Assembly: GCA_963718615.1 (NCBI GenBank)
Contig: OY970368.1
Span: 3,680,001-3,744,000, forward strand
Direction: 5' to 3'
From: an uncultured cyanobacterium
Lineage (GTDB): Bacteria; Cyanobacteriota; Cyanobacteriia; PCC-9006; JAAUQQ01
DNA: 64,000 nucleotides
Within the stretch, counting starts at the first letter, position 1. Every line of letters starts with the position of its first letter. Below the pieces are notes generated by a model, which did no database searches, was not told the DNA's origin, and saw only the letters and a program-made list of their open reading frames with translations. Shown in pieces: positions 7,231-40,064 of this stretch. Made by a program: the position numbers and the translations under genes.

Positions 7231-8916
7231 TTACTCGGCTATGGCATACTGAACTAATTGGCCTAAGCGCTGGCGTAAAGTTTCGAGACCCAGGCGATCG
7301 CGGGCAGAGACAAATAGCGCTTGGGGATATTCTTCTTTGGCTTCTTCCAAACGATCGAGATCCACCAAGTCGACTTTATTTAACACGAGTAAAATAGGTC
7401 CCGGCGTCACGGGCATATCGGATAAAATCGACATCACCGCCCGAATTTGACTTTGCCAAGCGGGATGGGAAAGGTCCACCAAATGCAACAAGGCATCCGC
7501 CTCGGTCACTTCCTCCAGGGTTGCACGGAAAGCATCCACCAAGGAGGGGGGAAGCTCGTGGATAAATCCCACAGTATCAGTCAGTAGAATTGTCCGGTGA
7601 TTCTCCGCCTCAGTATCCGAAATCCTGAGCTTTCGCGTTGTGGGGTCGAGCGTTGCAAAAAGCTGGTCGGCTGCATAGACATCGGAATGGGTCAACGTAT
7701 TAAGCAGTGTTGACTTCCCTGCATTGGTATAGCCGACCAAGGCAATGGACGGGACCGACTGGCGCTGACGGTGTTGCCGCAGTCTGGCCCGGTGAGCCTG
7801 AAGTTCATCCACCTGCTGTTGAAGCCGAGAAATCCGACGCTGGATGGCCCGACGTTCGGTTTCGAGCTTGGTTTCCCCTGGACCACGGGTGCCGATACCA
7901 CCGCCCAACCGAGACATGGCCAAGCCTCGACCCGCTAGCCGAGGCAATTGGTATTCCAACTGAGCCAGCTCCACCTGGAGTTTACCGGCTCCGGTCTTGG
8001 CTCGCTGGGCAAAAATATCGAGAATGACTTCCGTGCGATCGACTACCCGCAGTCCAATGCGTCGCTCCAGGTTGCGCACTTGCATGGGGGATAAATCGCG
8101 GTTAAAGACAATCAAACTGGCTCCCACGGTTTGAGCGGCCAGGGCAATTTCTTCGATCTTGCCGTCGCCGACAACGGTTTGGGGGTGGGGTTGCGATCGC
8201 TTCTGCTTCACCACATCCAGCACATCTCCGCCCGCCGATTCGACCAAGCGTTTGAGTTCGGCGAGGGTGTCTTGAAACTGAAGGCGATCGTCTCGATTCG
8301 TCTGTAGCCCGACAATGAGGACGCGATCGTGACCCGGTTCGACTTCCTGGGCTTGGGCTTGGCGGCGAAACTCTGCTTCTAAGCCTTCAACCAGATCGAG
8401 AAAATCCTGTTCGGCGAGGTCCTCCAGCGGTTGCGGCGGCGAAATACTCCAACGGGCCTCCGGATGGGGAATCAAGTGGGCCAAATAGACGCTGTCGACA
8501 TAACCCGTCGCTCCGCCGCCGCGTCGCGTAAAACCCTGTCCTGTCAATGCTAGGGTCACCAAGGCATCAAGCCGCTGCAGCGCCATGGCCGTAAGCTGGG
8601 CTTCATTGGGGGGCGTCGGTTTGAGTTCCGTGGTGATGCAACGAATTCCGCAGAGCCGTTCCGCACCGTAGCGCGGCAGTTCCAGGGGCGAAATTTGGGT
8701 TTGGCGAACCGTACCAACCCCCACCCGAATGACCTGGCCCCGGCGATTGAGATAGACCGAGACCGGCTGACTCAGATCCGTGCTGAGCGCGGCGATCCGC
8801 TGGGCAAATTCTGGGGTGGTGAGGCGATCGCCCGGTAGTCGCTGCTGATAAAGCCGCTGGAGTTGCTTGAGCTGGTTGGGCTTGAGGCCCTTGAGGTTGC
8901 CGTAGACAGTCTCGAT
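7231..8916 (-). CDS. hflX: GTPase HflX (long cyanobacterial form), apparent ATC start
   Basis: GGGIGTRGPGE, GYTNAGKST, LFATLD, DTVGF and NKVD motifs. The frame stays open upstream of the tracked GTG to ATC-GAG-ACT-GTC-TAC-GGC-AAC (IETVYGNLKGLK), with AGGAG 9 nt upstream and an in-frame TAG just beyond. Confidence 0.93.
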   Translation of the reverse strand: METVYGNLKGLKPNQLKQLQRLYQQRLPGDRLTTPEFAQRIAALSTDLSQPVSVYLNRRGQVIRVGVGTVRQTQISPLELPRYGAERLCGIRCITTELKPTPPNEAQLTAMALQRLDALVTLALTGQGFTRRGGGATGYVDSVYLAHLIPHPEARWSISPPQPLEDLAEQDFLDLVEGLEAEFRRQAQAQEVEPGHDRVLIVGLQTNRDDRLQFQDTLAELKRLVESAGGDVLDVVKQKRSQPHPQTVVGDGKIEEIALAAQTVGASLIVFNRDLSPMQVRNLERRIGLRVVDRTEVILDIFAQRAKTGAGKLQVELAQLEYQLPRLAGRGLAMSRLGGGIGTRGPGETKLETERRAIQRRISRLQQQVDELQAHRARLRQHRQRQSVPSIALVGYTNAGKSTLLNTLTHSDVYAADQLFATLDPTTRKLRISDTEAENHRTILLTDTVGFIHELPPSLVDAFRATLEEVTEADALLHLVDLSHPAWQSQIRAVMSILSDMPVTPGPILLVLNKVDLVDLDRLEEAKEEYPQALFVSARDRLGLETLRQRLGQLVQYAIAE

Positions 8917-18458: not shown

Positions 18459-18905
18459 TCACACGTAAACTCTGGGCAGAGGAATTTCATCGTCATCATA
18501 CGTCAATCCCTGGACCGATGGACAGGGCAAGGCACTCGGCATTCCCAAAATAAGACCGATCCCAAAGGCTTGCATCGGTCACCTCAGCCCCTAAGATATT
18601 TCCAGTTTTAAGATATTCCCGGTATTCCCGGTTTGAAGGTCCAGATCGAAATCCCAAACCAGGGTTTAGATGCCCTGATGTCTTAGGGGCAACCGCCCCC
18701 TAAGGGGCAGCTCCCGCAGCTCCAACAGGGGCTTTGGCATACGCAAATGGGGGTGCGATAAATCTAACACCCGGTGTTAAGCTAGGCACGAAAGCAAGAT
18801 CTTGATGGTTAACCCTTTCGTGGCAGCCACAGCCTCTACCCAGTATCATTGGCCAATTTAGCTGGGTGGAAAGAAGACCTTTAGCCATCCACATGAGGTG
18901 CTGGC

Positions 18906-20642
18906 GTGAACTCCCACAGCGACCAAATTCGCTCCCTTATTTTAGAGATTGATGAGCTATTGCACGGTAGCTCCCGCAATCTGTTCTGGACTCTTTCGGG
19001 CGATCGCGCTCGACATCAGGAAACGCTCCAGCATTTGCGCCGTTATCTCTCAACGCTGCAAAATGCCATTCGCAAAGCCAGAATTCGCAATCTCCCAGCG
19101 GGTTCTGACGATTTGCCGATGCTGCTGCAAGCCAAGCCCAAGACCAGCAGTATCCATCCCCATGGTCCAAAGGCCCTCAATCCCTTTGCCATTCCAGGCC
19201 CGCTCGACGCTGTTTCCCCAGCAGAGGATCAAGCCACCCGGATCCATCCTTTGGCGGAGTCCGATAGGATAAAGGAGACCCCTGAACTGGAAGTTCGTCC
19301 CCTGAGTTACCAAGATTCAGATCAGCTCCTTCAACAGCTCAGCGACGAGCTGACCCAGCTGCGCGATAGCCTCATTGGCCCGCTCAAGGCTGAGGTCCAG
19401 CGGTTGCAGCTCCAGCGCCAGCAGTTGCAGCAGGAAGTAACGCAGCTGGAAATTCGGCGTGCTCAACAGCAATCGCCCTTCCAGGAGAAGTTGCTACAAG
19501 AATTCCTCCAAACGTTGATGGGGCGCTTGCAGGAGCGGATGGTGAAGCAGATTTCCACCATTCTGCAACAGATGCTGCCGCAAATTCTCGCCAGTCAGAC
19601 AGGGGCCGCGCTGCCTGCGGAAGAAATTCAGCGGATTCAACAGCTCCAGCAGCGGGCCAATGCCCTGCTGGGCAATCTGGATTCGACGCTGCAAATCTTT
19701 TCTCAAACCCTTGAACAAAATATCCAAACCTACCAGCAGTCGTTGGCGACGGGTCTGGAGCGAATGCACAGCATGGGGCGTCAAGGGGAAGTGATGATGT
19801 CGACGCTGGTGGACCGCCTGGCGGACCAAATGGAAACCCAGACGGCTCGCTATCTCCAAAGTCCAGCTCCAACACGCAATTTACCGGCGACAGCAGGTTT
19901 CCAATCCATGTCGAGTACGGGCATTGCCAGCCGGACCCCAATCCCTGTTCCTGGGACAACGAATCCTGGGACGACGGAAGCGACTGGGGAGCCTGCCCTA
20001 CCGCCGACAGCCCGTGCCACGCCAGACAGCGCCAATCGGAACGCCAGTTCTAAGGCCAATCCGAACGCCGGTAGTTTAGATGATTTTTACGCCAGCTTTG
20101 CGGCTTCAGCCGCAGCCTCGGTCTCCGCAGATTCGGCCAGTTCAGTAGATTCGGTAGGTTCGGCGACGGCCACTGAAGTCGCTGTTGCAACCCCTCGCGA
20201 GGTCTTACCTAGTCCGGCGATCGCCCGCACGGCGGATCTCGCAGCTCAACCAGAATCCTACGGCAGTTTAGAAGAAGCTCTGTTTGGCCATCTGCCCGAA
20301 GGGGAGCAGTTTTGGTTAATCCCAGGAGAGACTCAGGCGATCGTCACTCCAGCACCAGCCATTCCAGTACCAGCCGCTACTCCCTCCAGGACTACGCCGG
20401 TCAGCAGAACGGTGAATAGGAGCGTCACGACAACCCCGACTCACCCCCCGGAAGCCCAAACGATTCGTTCTTTGAATGAGCTGATCGATCGGACCTTTCG
20501 GGATTTAGAGAGTCTTAATTTGCTGGGCAGTCCCGGCAATACCGCCACGGCGATGCGAGCTGCCGCCGTTCAAGCTTCCCCTACCCCGCTGGGCTCTGGT
20601 GTCATGGTTGACGCCAAAAAAAAAACAGCTCCGCGCTCCTAG
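18906..20642 (+). CDS. Coiled-coil hypothetical protein with low-complexity Ala/Pro/Thr tail; possible N-terminal half of a frameshift fusion
   Basis: GTG start after GAGGTG; Q/L heptads (LKAEVQRLQLQRQQLQQEV...); A10 run at 20616-20625 just before the stop. Confidence 0.8.
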   Translation: MNSHSDQIRSLILEIDELLHGSSRNLFWTLSGDRARHQETLQHLRRYLSTLQNAIRKARIRNLPAGSDDLPMLLQAKPKTSSIHPHGPKALNPFAIPGPLDAVSPAEDQATRIHPLAESDRIKETPELEVRPLSYQDSDQLLQQLSDELTQLRDSLIGPLKAEVQRLQLQRQQLQQEVTQLEIRRAQQQSPFQEKLLQEFLQTLMGRLQERMVKQISTILQQMLPQILASQTGAALPAEEIQRIQQLQQRANALLGNLDSTLQIFSQTLEQNIQTYQQSLATGLERMHSMGRQGEVMMSTLVDRLADQMETQTARYLQSPAPTRNLPATAGFQSMSSTGIASRTPIPVPGTTNPGTTEATGEPALPPTARATPDSANRNASSKANPNAGSLDDFYASFAASAAASVSADSASSVDSVGSATATEVAVATPREVLPSPAIARTADLAAQPESYGSLEEALFGHLPEGEQFWLIPGETQAIVTPAPAIPVPAATPSRTTPVSRTVNRSVTTTPTHPPEAQTIRSLNELIDRTFRDLESLNLLGSPGNTATAMRAAAVQASPTPLGSGVMVDAKKKTAPRS

Positions 20643-20686
20643 AACCGCCTAGTCAACCGCATCAGCCCGTCCAGCCTGATCTTCTG

Positions 20687-22453
20687 ATGGGTACCACGGC
20701 GGGCTGGTATCTTGGACTGGAGTTTTCGACCCAAGGGTTGCGGGCTGTTCTGTGTAACCCGGTGACGGGGACGAGCTATCCCCTGTTTTGGCAAGGCATG
20801 GTGGCGGCTAATCGCCTGACGGAGCCGGTGTGGCAATTGGCGGCGATCGCCCATCTCCCCTCCAGTTTTAGCAGTAACCCAGAAGCGGTTGATATTCAGC
20901 TCCCCCTAACCGGTTTACCGGCTCCCGATGGCGTGTTGCTGTGCGATCTCAAGGCGGCCTTTGAAGTGGGTCTTCCCTATATTTCCGACAGCACGCACGA
21001 TTGGGAACCCCAGCTAGACTGGTATTTTCAGGCGGCTCAGCCCCAGCGGACCCTAACTCCGCAAGCGGCTATTTCTTTGACCTTGGCGCTCAAGGTGTTG
21101 ACCCAGTTGCTGAGCACCCTCCAGCCCGAACGCACCCTGCCCCAGATGGGCACTTGGTCCTGTGGCGCGGAAGGATTAACCGCAGCCCAAACGGCCCAGT
21201 CCCTCGGCAGTCTGGAAGGCGTCATTATCAGTTGTCCTGCGGCTTGTAATGAAGCCTATCGGTTTAACCTGCGCGAGGCTGTGCTGACGGCTGAACTCGT
21301 GACCCAGCCAGAACAAATAACTTTTTTGGAGGTGCCGATCGCCGCCCTCCTAGCCGAGTTCAATCCCGATTGGGGACACCGTTTTGTCTCGACCGATTGG
21401 CAAGGGGCAACGCTGGTTGTCCATGCCGGAACTAGCGCCACTGAACTCGGTTTGGTTTGTTTGCCGAACACGCTGCACAATCTCACCCATGAAGATTTTA
21501 AGCTGCGTCGTTTTGAGTATGGTGCGATGGCTTTGCAGCAGGATATTGCCTGTCAGCTCTTGGCTCCGTTCATTCCAGAACCCCATTTGGGACTAGATAT
21601 GACCGTTTTGCCAATTCCAGGGGAGCCAGATTGTACGGTGCGATCGCAACTCCAGCGCCAGCTCTATCAATCCCCCGCCGGTCTGATGCTCCTAGAGGGC
21701 AGCGCCTATCTCCAGCAAGTGTTGCAACGCCAAGAGCGGATCACCTTTGAGTTTGGTCCCTATGCCTGTACGTTCTCCCAAAAAGCAATGGATACCAAGG
21801 TGACTCAACCCTTTGTCATTCGCCTAAACCGCGAACTGAATCGGCTCTTTAGTGAAGCCGGTGTAGTGGCAGAAGGCATCACCCAGGTCATTTGTACCGG
21901 CAACGGTATCACCCAGCCTGCCATTGGGCAGTGGCTCAAGCAAAAACTTCCCCAGGCTCGATTCATCCAGTCAGAACGGCAAATGGAAAAGCTGATCGAC
22001 CATCGAATTGCCTATGGTCTAGTGAGCCTGCCCCTCTATCCTCAAGTGTTGGATCGAAATACGCAGCAGTATAGCGATTACTTCTTGCTGATGGAACTGT
22101 TGCGATCGCTCCCCCTCGAAGCCTTGACCCTCGACGAGATTCTGGGACATTTAGAAACGTTGGGCATTAATACCCATGCCTGCAAGCCCAGGGTGTTGGC
22201 AATTTTGCAGGGGCAAATTCCGTCGGGACTTGTCCCGGAACCCGCAGATATCTGGGCGTCCCGTCGCAATGCGGACTATCAATCCCTCCAGATGAAGCCC
22301 TTGTTTCGTCAGATTTCGGCCCAAAGTTTCCAAATTGATCAGGAGCAGCGTCAGCGCTTTCTCGATTATTGGGCCAAGGTAACAGCCCACACGCAACAAA
22401 CGCTGGAAGAACCCTATAGTTTGGGGTTGGGAGTATCGGTGATGGGGTCGTGA
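20687..22453 (+). CDS. Hypothetical protein with degenerate Hsp70/actin-like ATPase fold
   Basis: WYLGLEFST (cf. LGIDFGT), VIISCPA...YRFNLREAV, LEVPIAALL, LVVHAGTSATEL and VICTGNG align with the Hsp70 nucleotide-binding motifs. The frame is open upstream to 20612. Confidence 0.75.
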   Translation: MGTTAGWYLGLEFSTQGLRAVLCNPVTGTSYPLFWQGMVAANRLTEPVWQLAAIAHLPSSFSSNPEAVDIQLPLTGLPAPDGVLLCDLKAAFEVGLPYISDSTHDWEPQLDWYFQAAQPQRTLTPQAAISLTLALKVLTQLLSTLQPERTLPQMGTWSCGAEGLTAAQTAQSLGSLEGVIISCPAACNEAYRFNLREAVLTAELVTQPEQITFLEVPIAALLAEFNPDWGHRFVSTDWQGATLVVHAGTSATELGLVCLPNTLHNLTHEDFKLRRFEYGAMALQQDIACQLLAPFIPEPHLGLDMTVLPIPGEPDCTVRSQLQRQLYQSPAGLMLLEGSAYLQQVLQRQERITFEFGPYACTFSQKAMDTKVTQPFVIRLNRELNRLFSEAGVVAEGITQVICTGNGITQPAIGQWLKQKLPQARFIQSERQMEKLIDHRIAYGLVSLPLYPQVLDRNTQQYSDYFLLMELLRSLPLEALTLDEILGHLETLGINTHACKPRVLAILQGQIPSGLVPEPADIWASRRNADYQSLQMKPLFRQISAQSFQIDQEQRQRFLDYWAKVTAHTQQTLEEPYSLGLGVSVMGS

Positions 22454-22600: not shown

Positions 22601-22607
22601 TTTTTTG

Positions 22608-22638
22608 AAACCCAGATATTTCCTGGGTTTTGTGTTTT
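22608..22638 (+). terminator. Hairpin terminator after tRNA-Val
   Basis: AAACCCAG...CTGGGTTT followed by a T-rich tail. Confidence 0.55.
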
Positions 22639-36311: not shown

Positions 36312-37493
36312 TTTCGGCAAGGACAAGGCCACCATCATGTACATCACCCAATAAATATTACTCAGCCGCAGCAAATAGCTTTCGGTGACGTTGTTGAGCG
36401 TCACAAAGGCCAACAGCCCAATAGGCCAGAGGTCACCACTGTGGCGTCCGAGGGAGGCTCGGGCGATCGCCCGCCCCAAGGCCGTAAACAAACTGATCAA
36501 GAAAAATAACACCCCCGGCAAGCCCACATCCAAAGCCAAGTCAATCAAACCATTGTGAACATGGGGGGGCGTATAGCCAGGGGCCACGGCTAGCCCCGCC
36601 TCCAGCGCATAGGGACTGCCCGGTGCCCAGAAGGCCGCGCGGCCAAATCCCAGGATTGGACTGTCCTGAATCCGCGTTAGGGCCACTCCCCACATGGGCG
36701 TTCGGCCCGTTAGCGTTGGGTCTTTGCCCAAACTGGTGAGCAAGGGCACCCACTGGCTGATGGCAAAGACTAAAAGGCAGCCGACCACTAGCAAGGTCAA
36801 ATCTAAGGCAATGACCGCCACCCGCCCTTTGAGTTTAAACTCACGGCAAAAATAGATCAGCGACATCACCAAAATTGAAACCACCAGGGCGGTTTTAGAC
36901 GTAGAAAGGAGCAACAGCAACACACTCAGCCCCACTCCCCCCCAAGCCCAAGGCACTTTTCTCACTCGGTCTGTGGCCAAGAGAAAGCTACTCATAATTC
37001 CCACCACCATGTAGCTCCCGAGGGTGTTTTTGTAATCAAATAAACCGCGCCAAGCGCCAATATGTTCCGTGGAATCAATCGCCACCTGAGGTAACACAAT
37101 GCCCGCTACAAAGGACAAAATACTGCCAATACCAAAGGCCGTTGCCACCAGTTTGAGCTGTTCGCGCAATGAAAATCGAGTTGCCATGTAGAGGCCAAAG
37201 GAGGCCATTTGTAGGACCTCTCGCGTGCCGTCCTTAGAGATCTCAGGATAGTGAGACCAGACAAAGGAAATGGCTTCTAACCCGACCACGCCCCAGAGCC
37301 ACGGATCCCGAGTCGCCGTGTAGAGTGCATGTTTATACCTCATGCCAATTAATACAACGGACAGGCCCCAGACTCCATAGCGCCAGAGGGTGAGCACAGG
37401 AGACGGCAAAATCGGCGGGACACCAATCGGCGAGATGAAAAAAAGCAGCCCAACAATCGCAAAGGCTCGCTCAAACCAAAGAAATGCAGTCAT
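36273..37493 (-). CDS. O-antigen ligase/Wzy-like polymerase (ExoQ-like)
   Basis: Multiple TM helices; WRGLFDYKN.LG, S.SKT, TLTGRT..W and HVHNG motifs. Confidence 0.88.
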   Translation of the reverse strand: MTAFLWFERAFAIVGLLFFISPIGVPPILPSPVLTLWRYGVWGLSVVLIGMRYKHALYTATRDPWLWGVVGLEAISFVWSHYPEISKDGTREVLQMASFGLYMATRFSLREQLKLVATAFGIGSILSFVAGIVLPQVAIDSTEHIGAWRGLFDYKNTLGSYMVVGIMSSFLLATDRVRKVPWAWGGVGLSVLLLLLSTSKTALVVSILVMSLIYFCREFKLKGRVAVIALDLTLLVVGCLLVFAISQWVPLLTSLGKDPTLTGRTPMWGVALTRIQDSPILGFGRAAFWAPGSPYALEAGLAVAPGYTPPHVHNGLIDLALDVGLPGVLFFLISLFTALGRAIARASLGRHSGDLWPIGLLAFVTLNNVTESYLLRLSNIYWVMYMMVALSLPKLQNRFFEPRHLP

Positions 37494-37620
37494 AGGGGGT
37501 GATGGAAAGGGCGATCGCCAAACTTCAAAATCATCGGGACCGGGCACAAAATTTGAGAAAGAAAGACTATTGACCCAAGAAGCATGGCCTACGGTTTTAA
37601 GAACCTGCGGTTTTGAGAAG

Positions 37621-40064
37621 ATGCATATGAATCGAAATCATCGCTGGTTTTTTCGCTGGTTTTTGGCCTTCGTTACGGCAGGACTGATAGTCTGTTTTGC
37701 TACTGACTTACTTGGTAAAAAAGCCCAAGATCATGCAGTTTTAGCCGTCTTAAAGGGACCGATTCAAATACAGGATCTCTACACCGTTCAAGGGCAGATT
37801 TTGGCAATCCGGATTGATGCTGGAAAAACAATTTTGGGGCGGCAAGAATCCTATCGAGGGGAACCGGGCGATCGCACCAGTTCTGATTCCCAAGGGAACC
37901 CCTGGCTCTGGCGTCGGGGGCAAGCGATCGGAGCGCTGGTGGGACCTCAGCAAAACATTCTGCGCCGGTTCGATCGCCTGGATGGACAGCCCTTGGATCT
38001 GCGTTGGGCAACTAGTCCCAAAACCTATCAGCTCAGCTCAGCCACTGATCCGGCCTACCGCCAGGGCCTTCAGCCCCATCAGGTCTTCCGCAAAACTCGA
38101 CCCACCAATATGGCCCAAACTGGCCCGGACAGCACCGTCTGGCCCCAAAGCCATACGCTCTACCTGCAATGGCCCCAACCCCTCCAGCCGGGGCAGCGGT
38201 ATCAACTGACGCTCTTGCCCGCCAATCCCCGTGAACAGCCGACGAAGCTGGCCTTTGACTACCAGCCCGATCGCCAAACCAGCGAAGCGGTCCATGTCTC
38301 CCAGGTGGGATTTCGACCCCAGGACCCCAAGGTCGCCTTTTTATCCACTTGGATGGGGGATGGGGGTGGGGTGGATTATCTTGAGGAGCCATCCCAGAAA
38401 CAGCGGGAAGGGCTGGGGTTTGAGCTAATTGAGGAGGGGACGGGGCGATCGCAATACCAGGGTCAGGTGCGCTTGCGGCGGCGAGCCCAGGAGACCGAAG
38501 TGGACAACCGCAACTATAACCAAACGCCGGTTTACAGCCTGACCTTCGACGAGTTCCGGCGTCCCGGTACCTATCGGGTCTGTGTCAAAACCGTAGGCTG
38601 TTCGCAGCCCTTTCCGATTCAGCCCCAGGTCTGGCAGGCTCCCTTTCGGCTGGCCTTTCGCGGGTTTTATCACCAGCGCAGCGGCATTGCCCTGGAGCCT
38701 CCCTTCACGACGGTGCGGCGGCCACGCCCGTTTCATCCGGCGGATGGGCTGGCGATCTATCAGTCTTCCACGCCGTTGATTGCCACGGGGAATGGGTTGG
38801 ATTATCGGCTAGACAATTTCAAAGCCCTGGTTGCAGGCAAAACCGCGTTGTCGATCAAAGCCTGGGGGGGCTATTTTGACGCGGGGGATTGGGATCGGCG
38901 GATTCAGCATCTGGAAGTGGCGCGGCTGCTGTTTGAACTGGCGGAGATTGCGCCGAAATTGACCCAGGAGACGTTTAATCTGCCGGAGTCTAAAAACGAT
39001 CTGCCGGACTTGATTGACGAAGCCCTTTGGGGACTGGACTTTTTCTATCGGCTGCAATTGCCCGATGGCGGGATTCGGGGGGGCATTGAGTCGGCGGAAC
39101 ATCCCAAGTGGGGCGAGACGAGCTGGCAGGAGTCCCATCCGGTCATGGCCTACGCGCCGGATGCTTGGTCGAGCTATGTCTATGCAGGGGTGGCGGCGCA
39201 GGCGGCGGCTTGGCTCCAGCCTCGGTTTCCCGAGCGCGCCCAGCGGTACCAGCAAAGCGCCCTCAAGGCCATGGCCTACGCCGAAGCCCACCGCCAAACC
39301 ACCGATGCCCCGCCAGACTTTGCCTACGCCCTGCGGGATGCCCGTAATCTTGCCGCTGTCGAGCTGCTGCGCCTTACCCGTGAGGCCCGCTGGCACCGCA
39401 TTTTTCTGGAAACCACCGTTTTCACGGACCCGAGCCAGCCCCTGTATCGCTGGGGGCAGCAGGACCAGCGGGATGCGGCCTTTGTCTATGCGCGGCTGCC
39501 ACAAACTTTAGTGAATTCCAAGGTTCAAACCCAGGCCAGAACGGCACTGCTGCGCGAAGCCCAAGAGTCTATGGGCCTCAGTCAACGCACCGGCTTTGGC
39601 TGGACCAAAATGGATCCCCAGCAGCCCATTGGCTGGGGCGGCAGCTTTGGCAATCCCCAGGTGACGACCTTAATTCGTGCCCATGTATTAACCCAAGATG
39701 AAAATTATTTAAAGACGGCTCTTCAATCGGCCCAGTTTGGCACCGGAGCCAATCCCCTGAATATGACATTTACAACCGGATTGGGTCAGCGTTTTCCTCA
39801 GAATCCCCTGGTGATTGATCAGCGATCGCTCGGCCAATCTCCCCCCCCGGTATCACCGTTTATGGTCCCCTGGATGTGCAGACGTTTCCCGACGATTGGC
39901 ATGCCCAACAAATTGCGCCCCAAGTCTATCCAGCCTTAGCAAAATGGCCCGTTACCGAAGCCTATTTTGATGTTTATTTGTTCCCGGCAGTGACCGAATT
40001 TACGGTGGCAGAAACCCTTGCACCGGTGGCCTATGCCTGGGGCTATTTTGCTGGACAGCCGTGA
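37621..40064 (+). pseudogene. Glycoside hydrolase family 9 (CelD-like N-domain), frameshifted at C8 39841-39848
   Basis: VSQVGF, FYHQRSG, GGYFDAGDWD, DEALWGL and GANPLN motifs. The C-terminus PPGITVYGP...EFTV..T continues in the -1 frame. Could be a true frameshift or a homopolymer error. Confidence 0.8.

Follow-up and report, generated by a model that had tools for sequence, protein, structure and literature searches.

The window analysed here is a 64,000-nucleotide stretch of the genome of an uncultured cyanobacterium (contig OY970368.1, positions 3,680,001 to 3,744,000). On its forward strand it carries two consecutive open reading frames (ORFs), called ORF1 and ORF2, whose junction falls at an uninterrupted run of ten adenines, the A10 tract (Table 1). 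ORF1 ends with GCC AAA AAA AAA ACA GCT CCG CGC TCC TAG, exactly as described in the initial annotation of this DNA, which had proposed that a programmed frameshift at the A10 tract fuses a coiled-coil protein to an Hsp70/actin-fold domain. The layout of the frames on which that proposal rested was found in the window sequence. The -1 frame opens immediately after a TGA, crosses the tract and continues through the whole of the Hsp70-like ORF2, giving 613 stop-free codons from position 20612 to a stop at 22451-22453. The stop-to-stop overlap of the two frames, put at about 30 nt in the initial annotation, measures 31 nt and contains the A run. One A added to the tract, or a -1 shift on it, connects ORF1 with ORF2; by a -1 shift at the tract the fusion comes to 573 + 609 = 1182 residues, which agrees with the 578 and approximately 1182 residues first given for the two products. 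The ATG at which ORF2 is called was also correctly reported to have no Shine-Dalgarno sequence, since the 20 nt that precede it contain no GGAGG-like or purine-rich Shine-Dalgarno-like stretch. Mobile-element features are not present at the ORF1/ORF2 locus. The comparisons reported below indicate that the A10 tract is probably a selected slippage site from which two products are made, most likely by transcriptional slippage.

Table 1. Features of the ORF1/ORF2 locus, in window coordinates
Feature	Position	Strand	Description	Basis
Promoter-like site upstream of ORF1	18820..18849	+	GTGGCA-18-TATCAT; consensus match only	
ORF1 (short product)	18906..20642	+	GTG start, 578 aa, ends KKKTAPRS	ORF map and sequence
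TGA in -1 frame	20609..20611	+	long frame open from 20612	
Stop-to-stop overlap of both frames	20612..20642	+	31 nt; encloses the entire A10 tract	
A10 tract, proposed slippage site	20616..20625	+	AAA AAA AAA A in the ORF1 frame	
-1-frame linker from tract to ATG 20687	20626..20686	+	about 20 codons; would be translated solely in the fusion product	
TAG terminating the short product	20640..20642	+	first base 14 nt and last base 17 nt past the tract	
ORF2	20687..22453	+	588 aa from ATG; predicted Hsp70-type nucleotide-binding domain and C-terminal part	
Terminator-like hairpin and T run, past ORF2	22606..22632	+	consensus match only	

Neither of the two window proteins gave a meaningful match to Pfam or NCBIfam, and the database homologues of ORF1 and ORF2 are named 'hypothetical protein' or, occasionally, 'molecular chaperone', 'DnaK' or a generic coiled-coil protein, names that offered no clue to function. 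The nature of ORF2 was therefore approached through structure prediction. An AlphaFold model built from a 16-sequence alignment reached a pLDDT of 86 and a pTM of 0.89, and when it was compared with the PDB using Foldseek, every top match was the nucleotide-binding domain (NBD) of an Hsp70 (DnaK, BiP, Sse1), with E values from 8.5e-14 to about 1e-12. TM-scores were about 0.6 on chains that consist of the NBD only and about 0.4 on full-length Hsp70s, at 10-15% sequence identity. Profile searches point in the same direction: six ORF2 homologues gave sub-threshold Pfam matches to PilM_2, HSP70, MreB and BcrAD, all of them members of the actin/Hsp70 superfamily, the HSP70 family itself (PF00012) scoring 10.7-13.2 bits, below its cut-off of 20.6, and a profile of the ORF2 domain matched DnaK and Sse1 weakly among PDB sequences (E 0.003-0.008). 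The fold assigned to ORF2 in the initial annotation is thus upheld by the predicted structure and by its best Foldseek match, and not by Pfam, which finds nothing for the window protein. Judged from the model, ORF2 is predicted to have an Hsp70/actin-type nucleotide-binding fold. It would consist of a divergent Hsp70-type NBD in approximately the first 450 residues, followed by a C-terminal part of about 130 residues that is modelled as short helices and a small sheet; the Foldseek matches included none to a substrate-binding domain, the C-terminal part having been given no dedicated comparison. The family consensus retains the phosphate-1 motif (WYLGIDFGTTG) and the adenosine motif (CTGGxASLP), with a reduced phosphate-2 motif. 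ORF2 therefore resembles the NBD of Hsp70/DnaK (the ASKHA fold) in the predicted fold of residues 1 to about 450 and in these two consensus motifs, and departs from it in its sub-threshold Pfam score, its 10-15% identity, the reduced phosphate-2 and the state of the motifs in the window. Indeed, the Hsp70-like domain of the window (20702-22450) carries degenerate nucleotide-binding motifs, GLEFSTQG in place of GIDFGTTG and CTGNGITQP in place of CTGGxASLP. To judge from these sequences, the domain may no longer bind or hydrolyse ATP in the lineage of the window.

The model of ORF1 comprises a helical N-terminal part (residues 3-60) and three long helices (135-188, 191-231 and 238-317). Its C-terminal 260 residues or so form a mostly disordered linker, rich in Pro, Ala, Ser and Thr and containing three short conserved helices, and the A10 tract is placed at the extreme end of this linker. 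The designation of ORF1 as a coiled-coil protein is therefore roughly right as regards the long helices between residues 135 and 317, but the mean pLDDT of the model is only 56 and the last 260 residues are mostly disordered. Taken as modelled, the product of the joined frames looks like a coiled-coil scaffold linked through a long disordered tether to a head with an Hsp70-type ATPase fold. A paralogue of about 600-620 residues combines an ORF1-type coiled coil with a C-terminal EamA/DMT-type membrane domain and has no A run (L121-L124, from genomes G016, G029, G031 and G021); proteins of this type are present in many cyanobacteria, and the ORF1-type coiled coil is therefore a module with varied partners.

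Conservation of the arrangement was assessed in two samples that partly overlap. The first comprised 41 related genomes, of which 25 (the window's own counted) hold the Hsp70-like half, and open frames were mapped at these loci. An ORF1 homologue is found upstream of the Hsp70-like half, on the same strand, and a run of nine or ten A (A9 or A10) is present at the junction in 21 of the 25 genomes, these 21 coming from 15 of 18 family codes (window and G004 counted). Where the locus is split into two overlapping open frames, the A run invariably lies inside the stop-to-stop overlap (15/15; A10 in nine cases, A9 in six), and the second frame is the -1 frame in 13 cases and the +1 frame in two. 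The nearest relative (L021/L041) shows the same A10 and the same -1 arrangement as the window. Eight relatives have instead one long ORF of 1,300-2,600 codons, and in four of these (G020, G024, G031 and G040) an A10 occupies the corresponding site and is in frame. The G004 locus is broken up into three open frames, for which reason its frame state was left unclassified; its run, an A9, lies 120 nt upstream of where the domain begins.

The second sample was drawn from databases by scanning one genome per species and keeping the best 80 of 256 relatives; a locus was scored as tract-bearing when a run of at least nine A lay within 2 kb upstream of the Hsp70-like domain. Among these best 80 loci, 64 bear a tract (A10 in 56, A9 in five, A11 in three), and the tract-bearing loci are labelled with nine NCBI orders. 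In 58 of the 80, the N-terminal part of ORF1 can be recognised on the same strand, upstream of the domain. Relative to the frame that enters the tract, the Hsp70-like domain is shifted by -1 in 36 tract-bearing loci and by +1 in seven, and 19 loci are in frame; the remaining two are ambiguous, the frame of the domain not staying open as far back as the run. The -1 state is exemplified by Stenomitos frigidus ULC18 and a Leptolyngbya, the in-frame state by Microcoleus vaginatus and Oscillatoria nigro-viridis PCC 7112. The run is exactly A10 in 31 of the 36 -1 loci, 17 of the 19 in-frame loci and six of the seven +1 loci. The initial annotation had named, as the outcome that would count against recoding, orthologues that occur always as single ORFs, or as separate genes without a conserved A run; what was found in both samples, 21/25 relatives and 64/80 loci, is the opposite. 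On the favoured reading of these comparisons, ORF1 and ORF2 are the halves of one conserved cyanobacterial gene.

Two further properties of these loci bear on the function of the tract. The first is a stop codon close behind it. In the frame that lies one base ahead of the domain frame, a stop occurs within 12 nt of the tract in 19 of 20 in-frame loci and in 33 of 37 -1 loci, as against only 2 of 20 and 11 of 37, respectively, for the remaining alternative frame. Since the near stop is kept in the in-frame loci, a short product ending just past the tract is encoded even in the fused genes. The second property is a dearth of start codons for the second half. From the tract to the conserved start of the domain (WYLGIDxGTTG), 29 of 43 out-of-frame tract loci have no ATG, and 10 of the 43 have no ATG, GTG or TTG; in the clade of the window, two of the three relatives (L042 and L043) are without a start codon between tract and domain. 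The kept tract, the near stop and the missing starts of the second half together support the reading of the tract as a recoding site.

The tract was also compared with the lysine codons and A runs that occur elsewhere. Outside it, the lysine codons of ORF1 and ORF2 in the window are AAG in 17 cases and AAA in three. The domain-coding DNA of 79 loci (146,400 nt) contains only eight A runs of at least seven and none of ten. In 110 long database proteins (126,777 residues), the tripeptide KKK is found only within the 500 residues before the domain, in 29 proteins. The linker on either side of the tract is too variable to be aligned, while the tract itself is conserved. The constraint on the tract is, to judge from these counts, one that acts at the nucleotide level.

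The favoured reading, which I consider probable, is that this constraint reflects slippage of RNA polymerase. The RNA:DNA hybrid in transcription is 9-10 bp long and matches the conserved length of the tract, and slippage in Escherichia coli at runs of at least ten was reportedly described by Wagner in 1990. On a T10 template the whole hybrid would consist of rA:dT pairs, the nascent RNA could realign, and the polymerase would insert (or drop) an A in a fraction of the transcripts. Translation of an unslipped A10 messenger would end at the TAG that closes ORF1 and yield the 578-residue coiled-coil/linker protein. On an A11 messenger, ribosomes would enter the -1 frame and synthesize a fusion of about 1182 residues with the Hsp70-like nucleotide-binding domain at its end. 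What the sequences show is the tract, the frames, their conservation, the near stop and, in some orthologues, the missing start codons; that slippage takes place, and that it gives two products in some ratio, is what I infer from them. As a guess, the short and long forms might co-assemble through their common coiled coil. In addition, the ATG at 20687 may permit some independent initiation of ORF2, since it sits where the stand-alone genes of three other loci (L047, L096 and L120) start.

Ribosomal frameshifting is an unlikely, though the best surviving, alternative to polymerase slippage. Programmed -1 frameshifting, or sliding, on A_AAA_AAA through re-pairing of tRNA-Lys would generate the same two products and may combine with transcriptional slippage; ribosome sliding on poly-A was reportedly described by Koutmou in 2015. 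The heptamer A_AAA_AAA is indeed in phase in the window (GCC AAA AAA AAA ACA), the tract begins at codon position 2 in 22 of 37 -1 loci, many of which then have a G that makes an in-phase A_AAA_AAG, and -1 is the commonest out-of-frame state (36 loci versus 7). These correspondences have to be read with the qualification that any phase of an A10 run includes a heptamer of the X_XXY_YYZ type. Four observations, on the other hand, make RNA polymerase the favoured agent. First, the tract is kept at a length of 10, in excess of the heptamer that a ribosomal site needs. Second, genes in the +1 state exist (seven of the 62 loci of unambiguous frame state, two of the 15 split relatives), and a -1 ribosomal shift would not rescue them. 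Third, no consistent RNA structure follows the tract: when the 80 nt past it were folded in 10 loci, z fell below -2 in one of the ten (L060, -3.9), the other nine ranging from -0.69, the value of the window, to +2.25. Fourth, the genome encodes the cognate tRNA-Lys(CUU) as well as tRNA-Lys(UUU), and the presence of tRNA-Lys(CUU) lowers the shiftiness of A_AAA_AAG; the relation between tRNA-Lys and A_AAA_AAG is said to have been addressed by Tsuchihashi and Brown in 1992. The comparison therefore sustains the recoding proposed in the initial annotation and shifts its probable mechanism, transcriptional slippage being likelier than the -1 ribosomal shift that the heading of the annotation implies. 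The exceptional locus L060 (positions 7794-7873; Cyanobacteria bacterium FACHB-502) has a strong hairpin 8 nt past its A10 (-24.8 kcal/mol).

The frame state of the domain is far more labile than the tract. On a tree of the domain from 79 loci and the window (L043 was dropped, its domain reading being short), the frame state switches at least 20 times among tract-bearing rows, even between near-identical sequences, and the presence of the tract switches only eight times. Such toggling would be expected of a contingency locus, that is, of a tract whose length changes during replication so that cells switch heritably between making the short protein alone and making the fusion (phase variation). 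Length variants of the required sort do occur in Microcoleus, where A9, A10 and A11 are all found: GT-A11 is in frame, GT-A10 is -1 and GTC-A9 is -1. These variants are occasional, however, and the Microcoleus states differ mainly by the base that adjoins the run, GTC-A10 being in frame and GT-A10 and AAT-A10 being -1. The same holds across the sample: 17 of 19 in-frame and 31 of 36 -1 loci have exactly A10, and most frame differences therefore arise beside the tract, unlike what an on/off tract would produce. The near stop conserved in in-frame loci, moreover, suggests that the two products are made simultaneously. Phase variation is thus very unlikely to account for the locus.

An extension of polymerase slippage would accommodate both the constant tract and the changing frames. 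In this tentative proposal, which is possible and on balance rather doubtful, the A10 tract acts across the phylum as an evolvable 'ratio dial': slippage of the polymerase would make both isoforms in each cell, and frequent, heritable one-base changes beside the tract, as seen in the 20 or more switches on the tree, would reset which of them is the major one. If this were true, lineages would tune the stoichiometry of coiled-coil scaffold to Hsp70-like head and never lose either product, and the tract would be one of the rare cellular recoding sites that a bacterial phylum conserves, with a genomic frame state itself under fluctuating selection.

Several observations weigh against programmed slippage of the polymerase. 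No run is seen in four of the 25 relatives (G011, G015, G032 and G037; G032 and G037 were judged on about 1.5 kb of upstream sequence only), and 16 of the 80 database loci have no run of at least nine. Of mixed nature, these 16 comprise fused genes that lack a run, three genes whose in-frame run is an A8, a small number in which the halves are truly separate genes, and loci truncated where a contig ends. A proxy for the tract at the protein level, of the KK type, is found in only 56 of 110 long database proteins. In L047, L096 and L120, the halves are two separate genes with a gap between them, an ATG of their own for the second and no tract; the fusion is therefore not indispensable to the family. 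The ATG at 20687 lies six codons before the conserved W of the domain, as do the second-gene starts of these three loci. Seventeen of the tract-bearing loci are from Microcoleus and many loci are close kin, so the counts overstate the independence of the cases. Some differences in frame state could be assembly errors in low-coverage metagenome-assembled genomes (MAGs). Lastly, sequence by itself cannot tell slippage of RNA polymerase from slippage of the ribosome. The three in-frame A8 loci (L055, L058 and L076; Microseira and a Phormidiaceae MAG) read GAAAAAAAAG or GAAAAAAAAT in place of the A10, and with this A8 the slippage site may have been weakened or be in decay.

Part of this evidence suits a reading without any recoding at the window locus, in which ORF1 and ORF2 are separate genes, ORF2 is translated from the ATG at 20687, and the A10 encodes a lysine patch that is the relic of a fused ancestor. 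The position of that ATG, shared with the tract-less loci, fits this reading, as does the fact that the halves can clearly work as separate polypeptides in the L047, L096 and L120 lineages. The want of a Shine-Dalgarno sequence is compatible with it as well, cyanobacterial genes being often devoid of one. A lysine patch, however, would not be expected to read as pure AAA AAA AAA A in genes in which 17 of the 20 other lysine codons are AAG. Nor would separate genes explain why two of the three relatives in the window's clade have no start codon from tract to domain, or why the tract is conserved in a linker that is otherwise not alignable. The lack of a promoter-like site between the ORFs also speaks against a separate ORF2, if weakly. 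Taken together, these points leave this reading highly improbable.

Finally, the quality of the assembly and the rarity of the tract were considered together. The 6.1-Mb genome (52% G+C) contains five A/T runs of length 10, 14 of length 9 and none longer, and among these 19 the tract at 20616-20625 alone stands between two long ORFs, with 573 codons open upstream of it in one frame and 612 downstream in another. The tract thus exceeds what chance would be expected to produce. In a scan of the genome, this split-ORF signature was observed at six of 3,672 strand-oriented homopolymer runs of at least seven and at one of 734 runs of at least eight, namely the A10 tract; the scarcity of split-ORF homopolymers means that the assembly is not affected by systematic homopolymer error. 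An assembly error at this site, whose real length would then be A11 and whose gene would be a single ORF of 1182 codons, is accordingly scarcely credible: although the genome is one contig, possibly derived from long reads, and the GH9 gene of the same window seems to switch frame near a C8 run, the signature is confined among the longer runs to the A10 tract, A10 with a -1 frame is the commonest state among independent assemblies, that of the nearest relative included, and an A11 would still make the locus an in-frame case of the same conserved site. The caveat on this point in the initial annotation is thereby weakened by the homopolymer scan and by the nearest relative, and the GH9 frame change it cited does appear to be present in the window.

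Other long A/T runs of the genome were considered as paralogous slippage sites and set aside: the A9 at genome position 1356260 is in frame within an ORF of the sensor kinase/cyclase type, and the A10 at 599824 is in frame within one that resembles a polyketide synthase, both unrelated to ORF1 and ORF2.

Known recoding systems offer several points of comparison. Slippage in Thermus dnaX was reportedly described by Larsen in 2000. The Thermus thermophilus gene gives rise to tau and gamma by transcriptional slippage on an A9 run that has a stop nearby (PMC1088944), two-ORF dnaX genes with A10 runs are on record (Antonov et al. 2013, PMC3711429), and A7, A9 and A11 in poly-A reporter cassettes gave 10, 40 and 63% frameshifting, respectively (PMC3711429). 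The locus studied here is like Thermus dnaX in having an A9-10 run in a cellular, non-mobile gene, near a stop in the alternative frame, with products that would share their N-terminus, and it is like dnaX in that in-frame and two-ORF genomic states both occur among species. It differs from dnaX in belonging to an unrelated family, in the placement of the run in a non-conserved, disordered linker, and in having three frame states that often change among close relatives. In Citrobacter rodentium tssM1, an A11 run is reported before the stop, both length variants being made and required in a set ratio (PMC4256274). The genes tssM1 of C. rodentium and tssM of Yersinia pseudotuberculosis, each with A11 before the stop, resemble the present case in that extra A residues in the mRNA restore a long form with the C-terminal domain, as they would here. 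Unlike tssM, which concerns two enterobacterial species, the tract is spread over loci labelled with nine cyanobacterial orders, and both forms may be needed here. A third parallel is provided by Shigella flexneri mxiE (T9) and by the orfA-orfB pairs of insertion sequences (IS), in which two overlapping ORFs become one through a nucleotide added at a homopolymer without a template (PMC1088944). IS elements of Nostoc PCC 7120 have A8-A10 runs (PMC1088944), which by analogy suggests that the cyanobacterial RNA polymerase slips on such homopolymers. Unlike mxiE and the IS elements, the ORF1-ORF2 gene encodes neither a regulator nor a transposase.

The ribosomal counterpart is the -1 frameshift of E. 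coli dnaX, which takes place on A_AAA_AAG with the help of an upstream Shine-Dalgarno-like element and a downstream hairpin. The A10 locus shares with it an in-phase heptamer of lysine codons and a short product that ends just past the shift site. It is unlike E. coli dnaX in lacking a conserved downstream structure, in the presence of tRNA-Lys(CUU), in a run that exceeds the heptamer and whose length is conserved, and in the existence of +1 orthologues. No description of this gene or site was found in the available parts of the recoding literature (including PMC3711429, PMC5009743 and PMC1088944), of which the GeneTack cluster tables of PMC3711429 could list the family. For a programmed cellular slippage site, the taxonomic breadth of the tract and the co-existence of three frame states are unusual. 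Few ordinary, non-mobile genes of bacteria are known to contain a conserved recoding site; prfB, dnaX, tssM, mxiE and Mg-chelatase are among the examples.

The organization of the gene has practical consequences. Annotation pipelines split or mis-start the ORF1-ORF2 gene, the second half being called with arbitrary starts. Its natural -1, in-frame and +1 alleles constitute a system for measuring slippage by the cyanobacterial RNA polymerase. The two predicted isoforms, which would share the coiled coil, also give a concrete starting point for finding out what this uncharacterised protein with an Hsp70 fold, common in filamentous cyanobacteria, does.

As for the remaining features of the region, a Crp-like regulator lies upstream of ORF1 on the opposite strand and a kinase-like ORF lies downstream of ORF2. 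Apart from the promoter-like site upstream of ORF1, the consensus scan found no second such site between 18400 and 22800, the interval between ORF1 and ORF2 included; the numbers of promoter-like and terminator-like sites are not above shuffled expectation. On the minus strand, at 20623-20650, there is a terminator-like hairpin whose tail is the T10 complementary to the A10 tract. A reading of the tract as nothing more than the T-tail of a minus-strand terminator was dropped, there being no convergent minus-strand gene that ends there, and for this reason the hairpin is probably incidental.

Two observations concern other genes. The A/T run of ten at 599824 (G000:C1, minus strand, outside the window) is in frame inside the 2,138-codon polyketide-synthase-like ORF mentioned above, and encodes EKKKQ in the linker that leads from the last of four ACP-like repeats to the C-terminal domain; from its sequence, it is a possible second slippage site, which would yield a truncated product. 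Within the window, the GH9-family ORF (37390-39939, 849 aa) stops at a TAG, and coding-like sequence continues in another frame to about 40064, with a C8 run at 39841-39848. A pseudogene, an error of assembly or a further recoding site could each account for this break (37390-40064).

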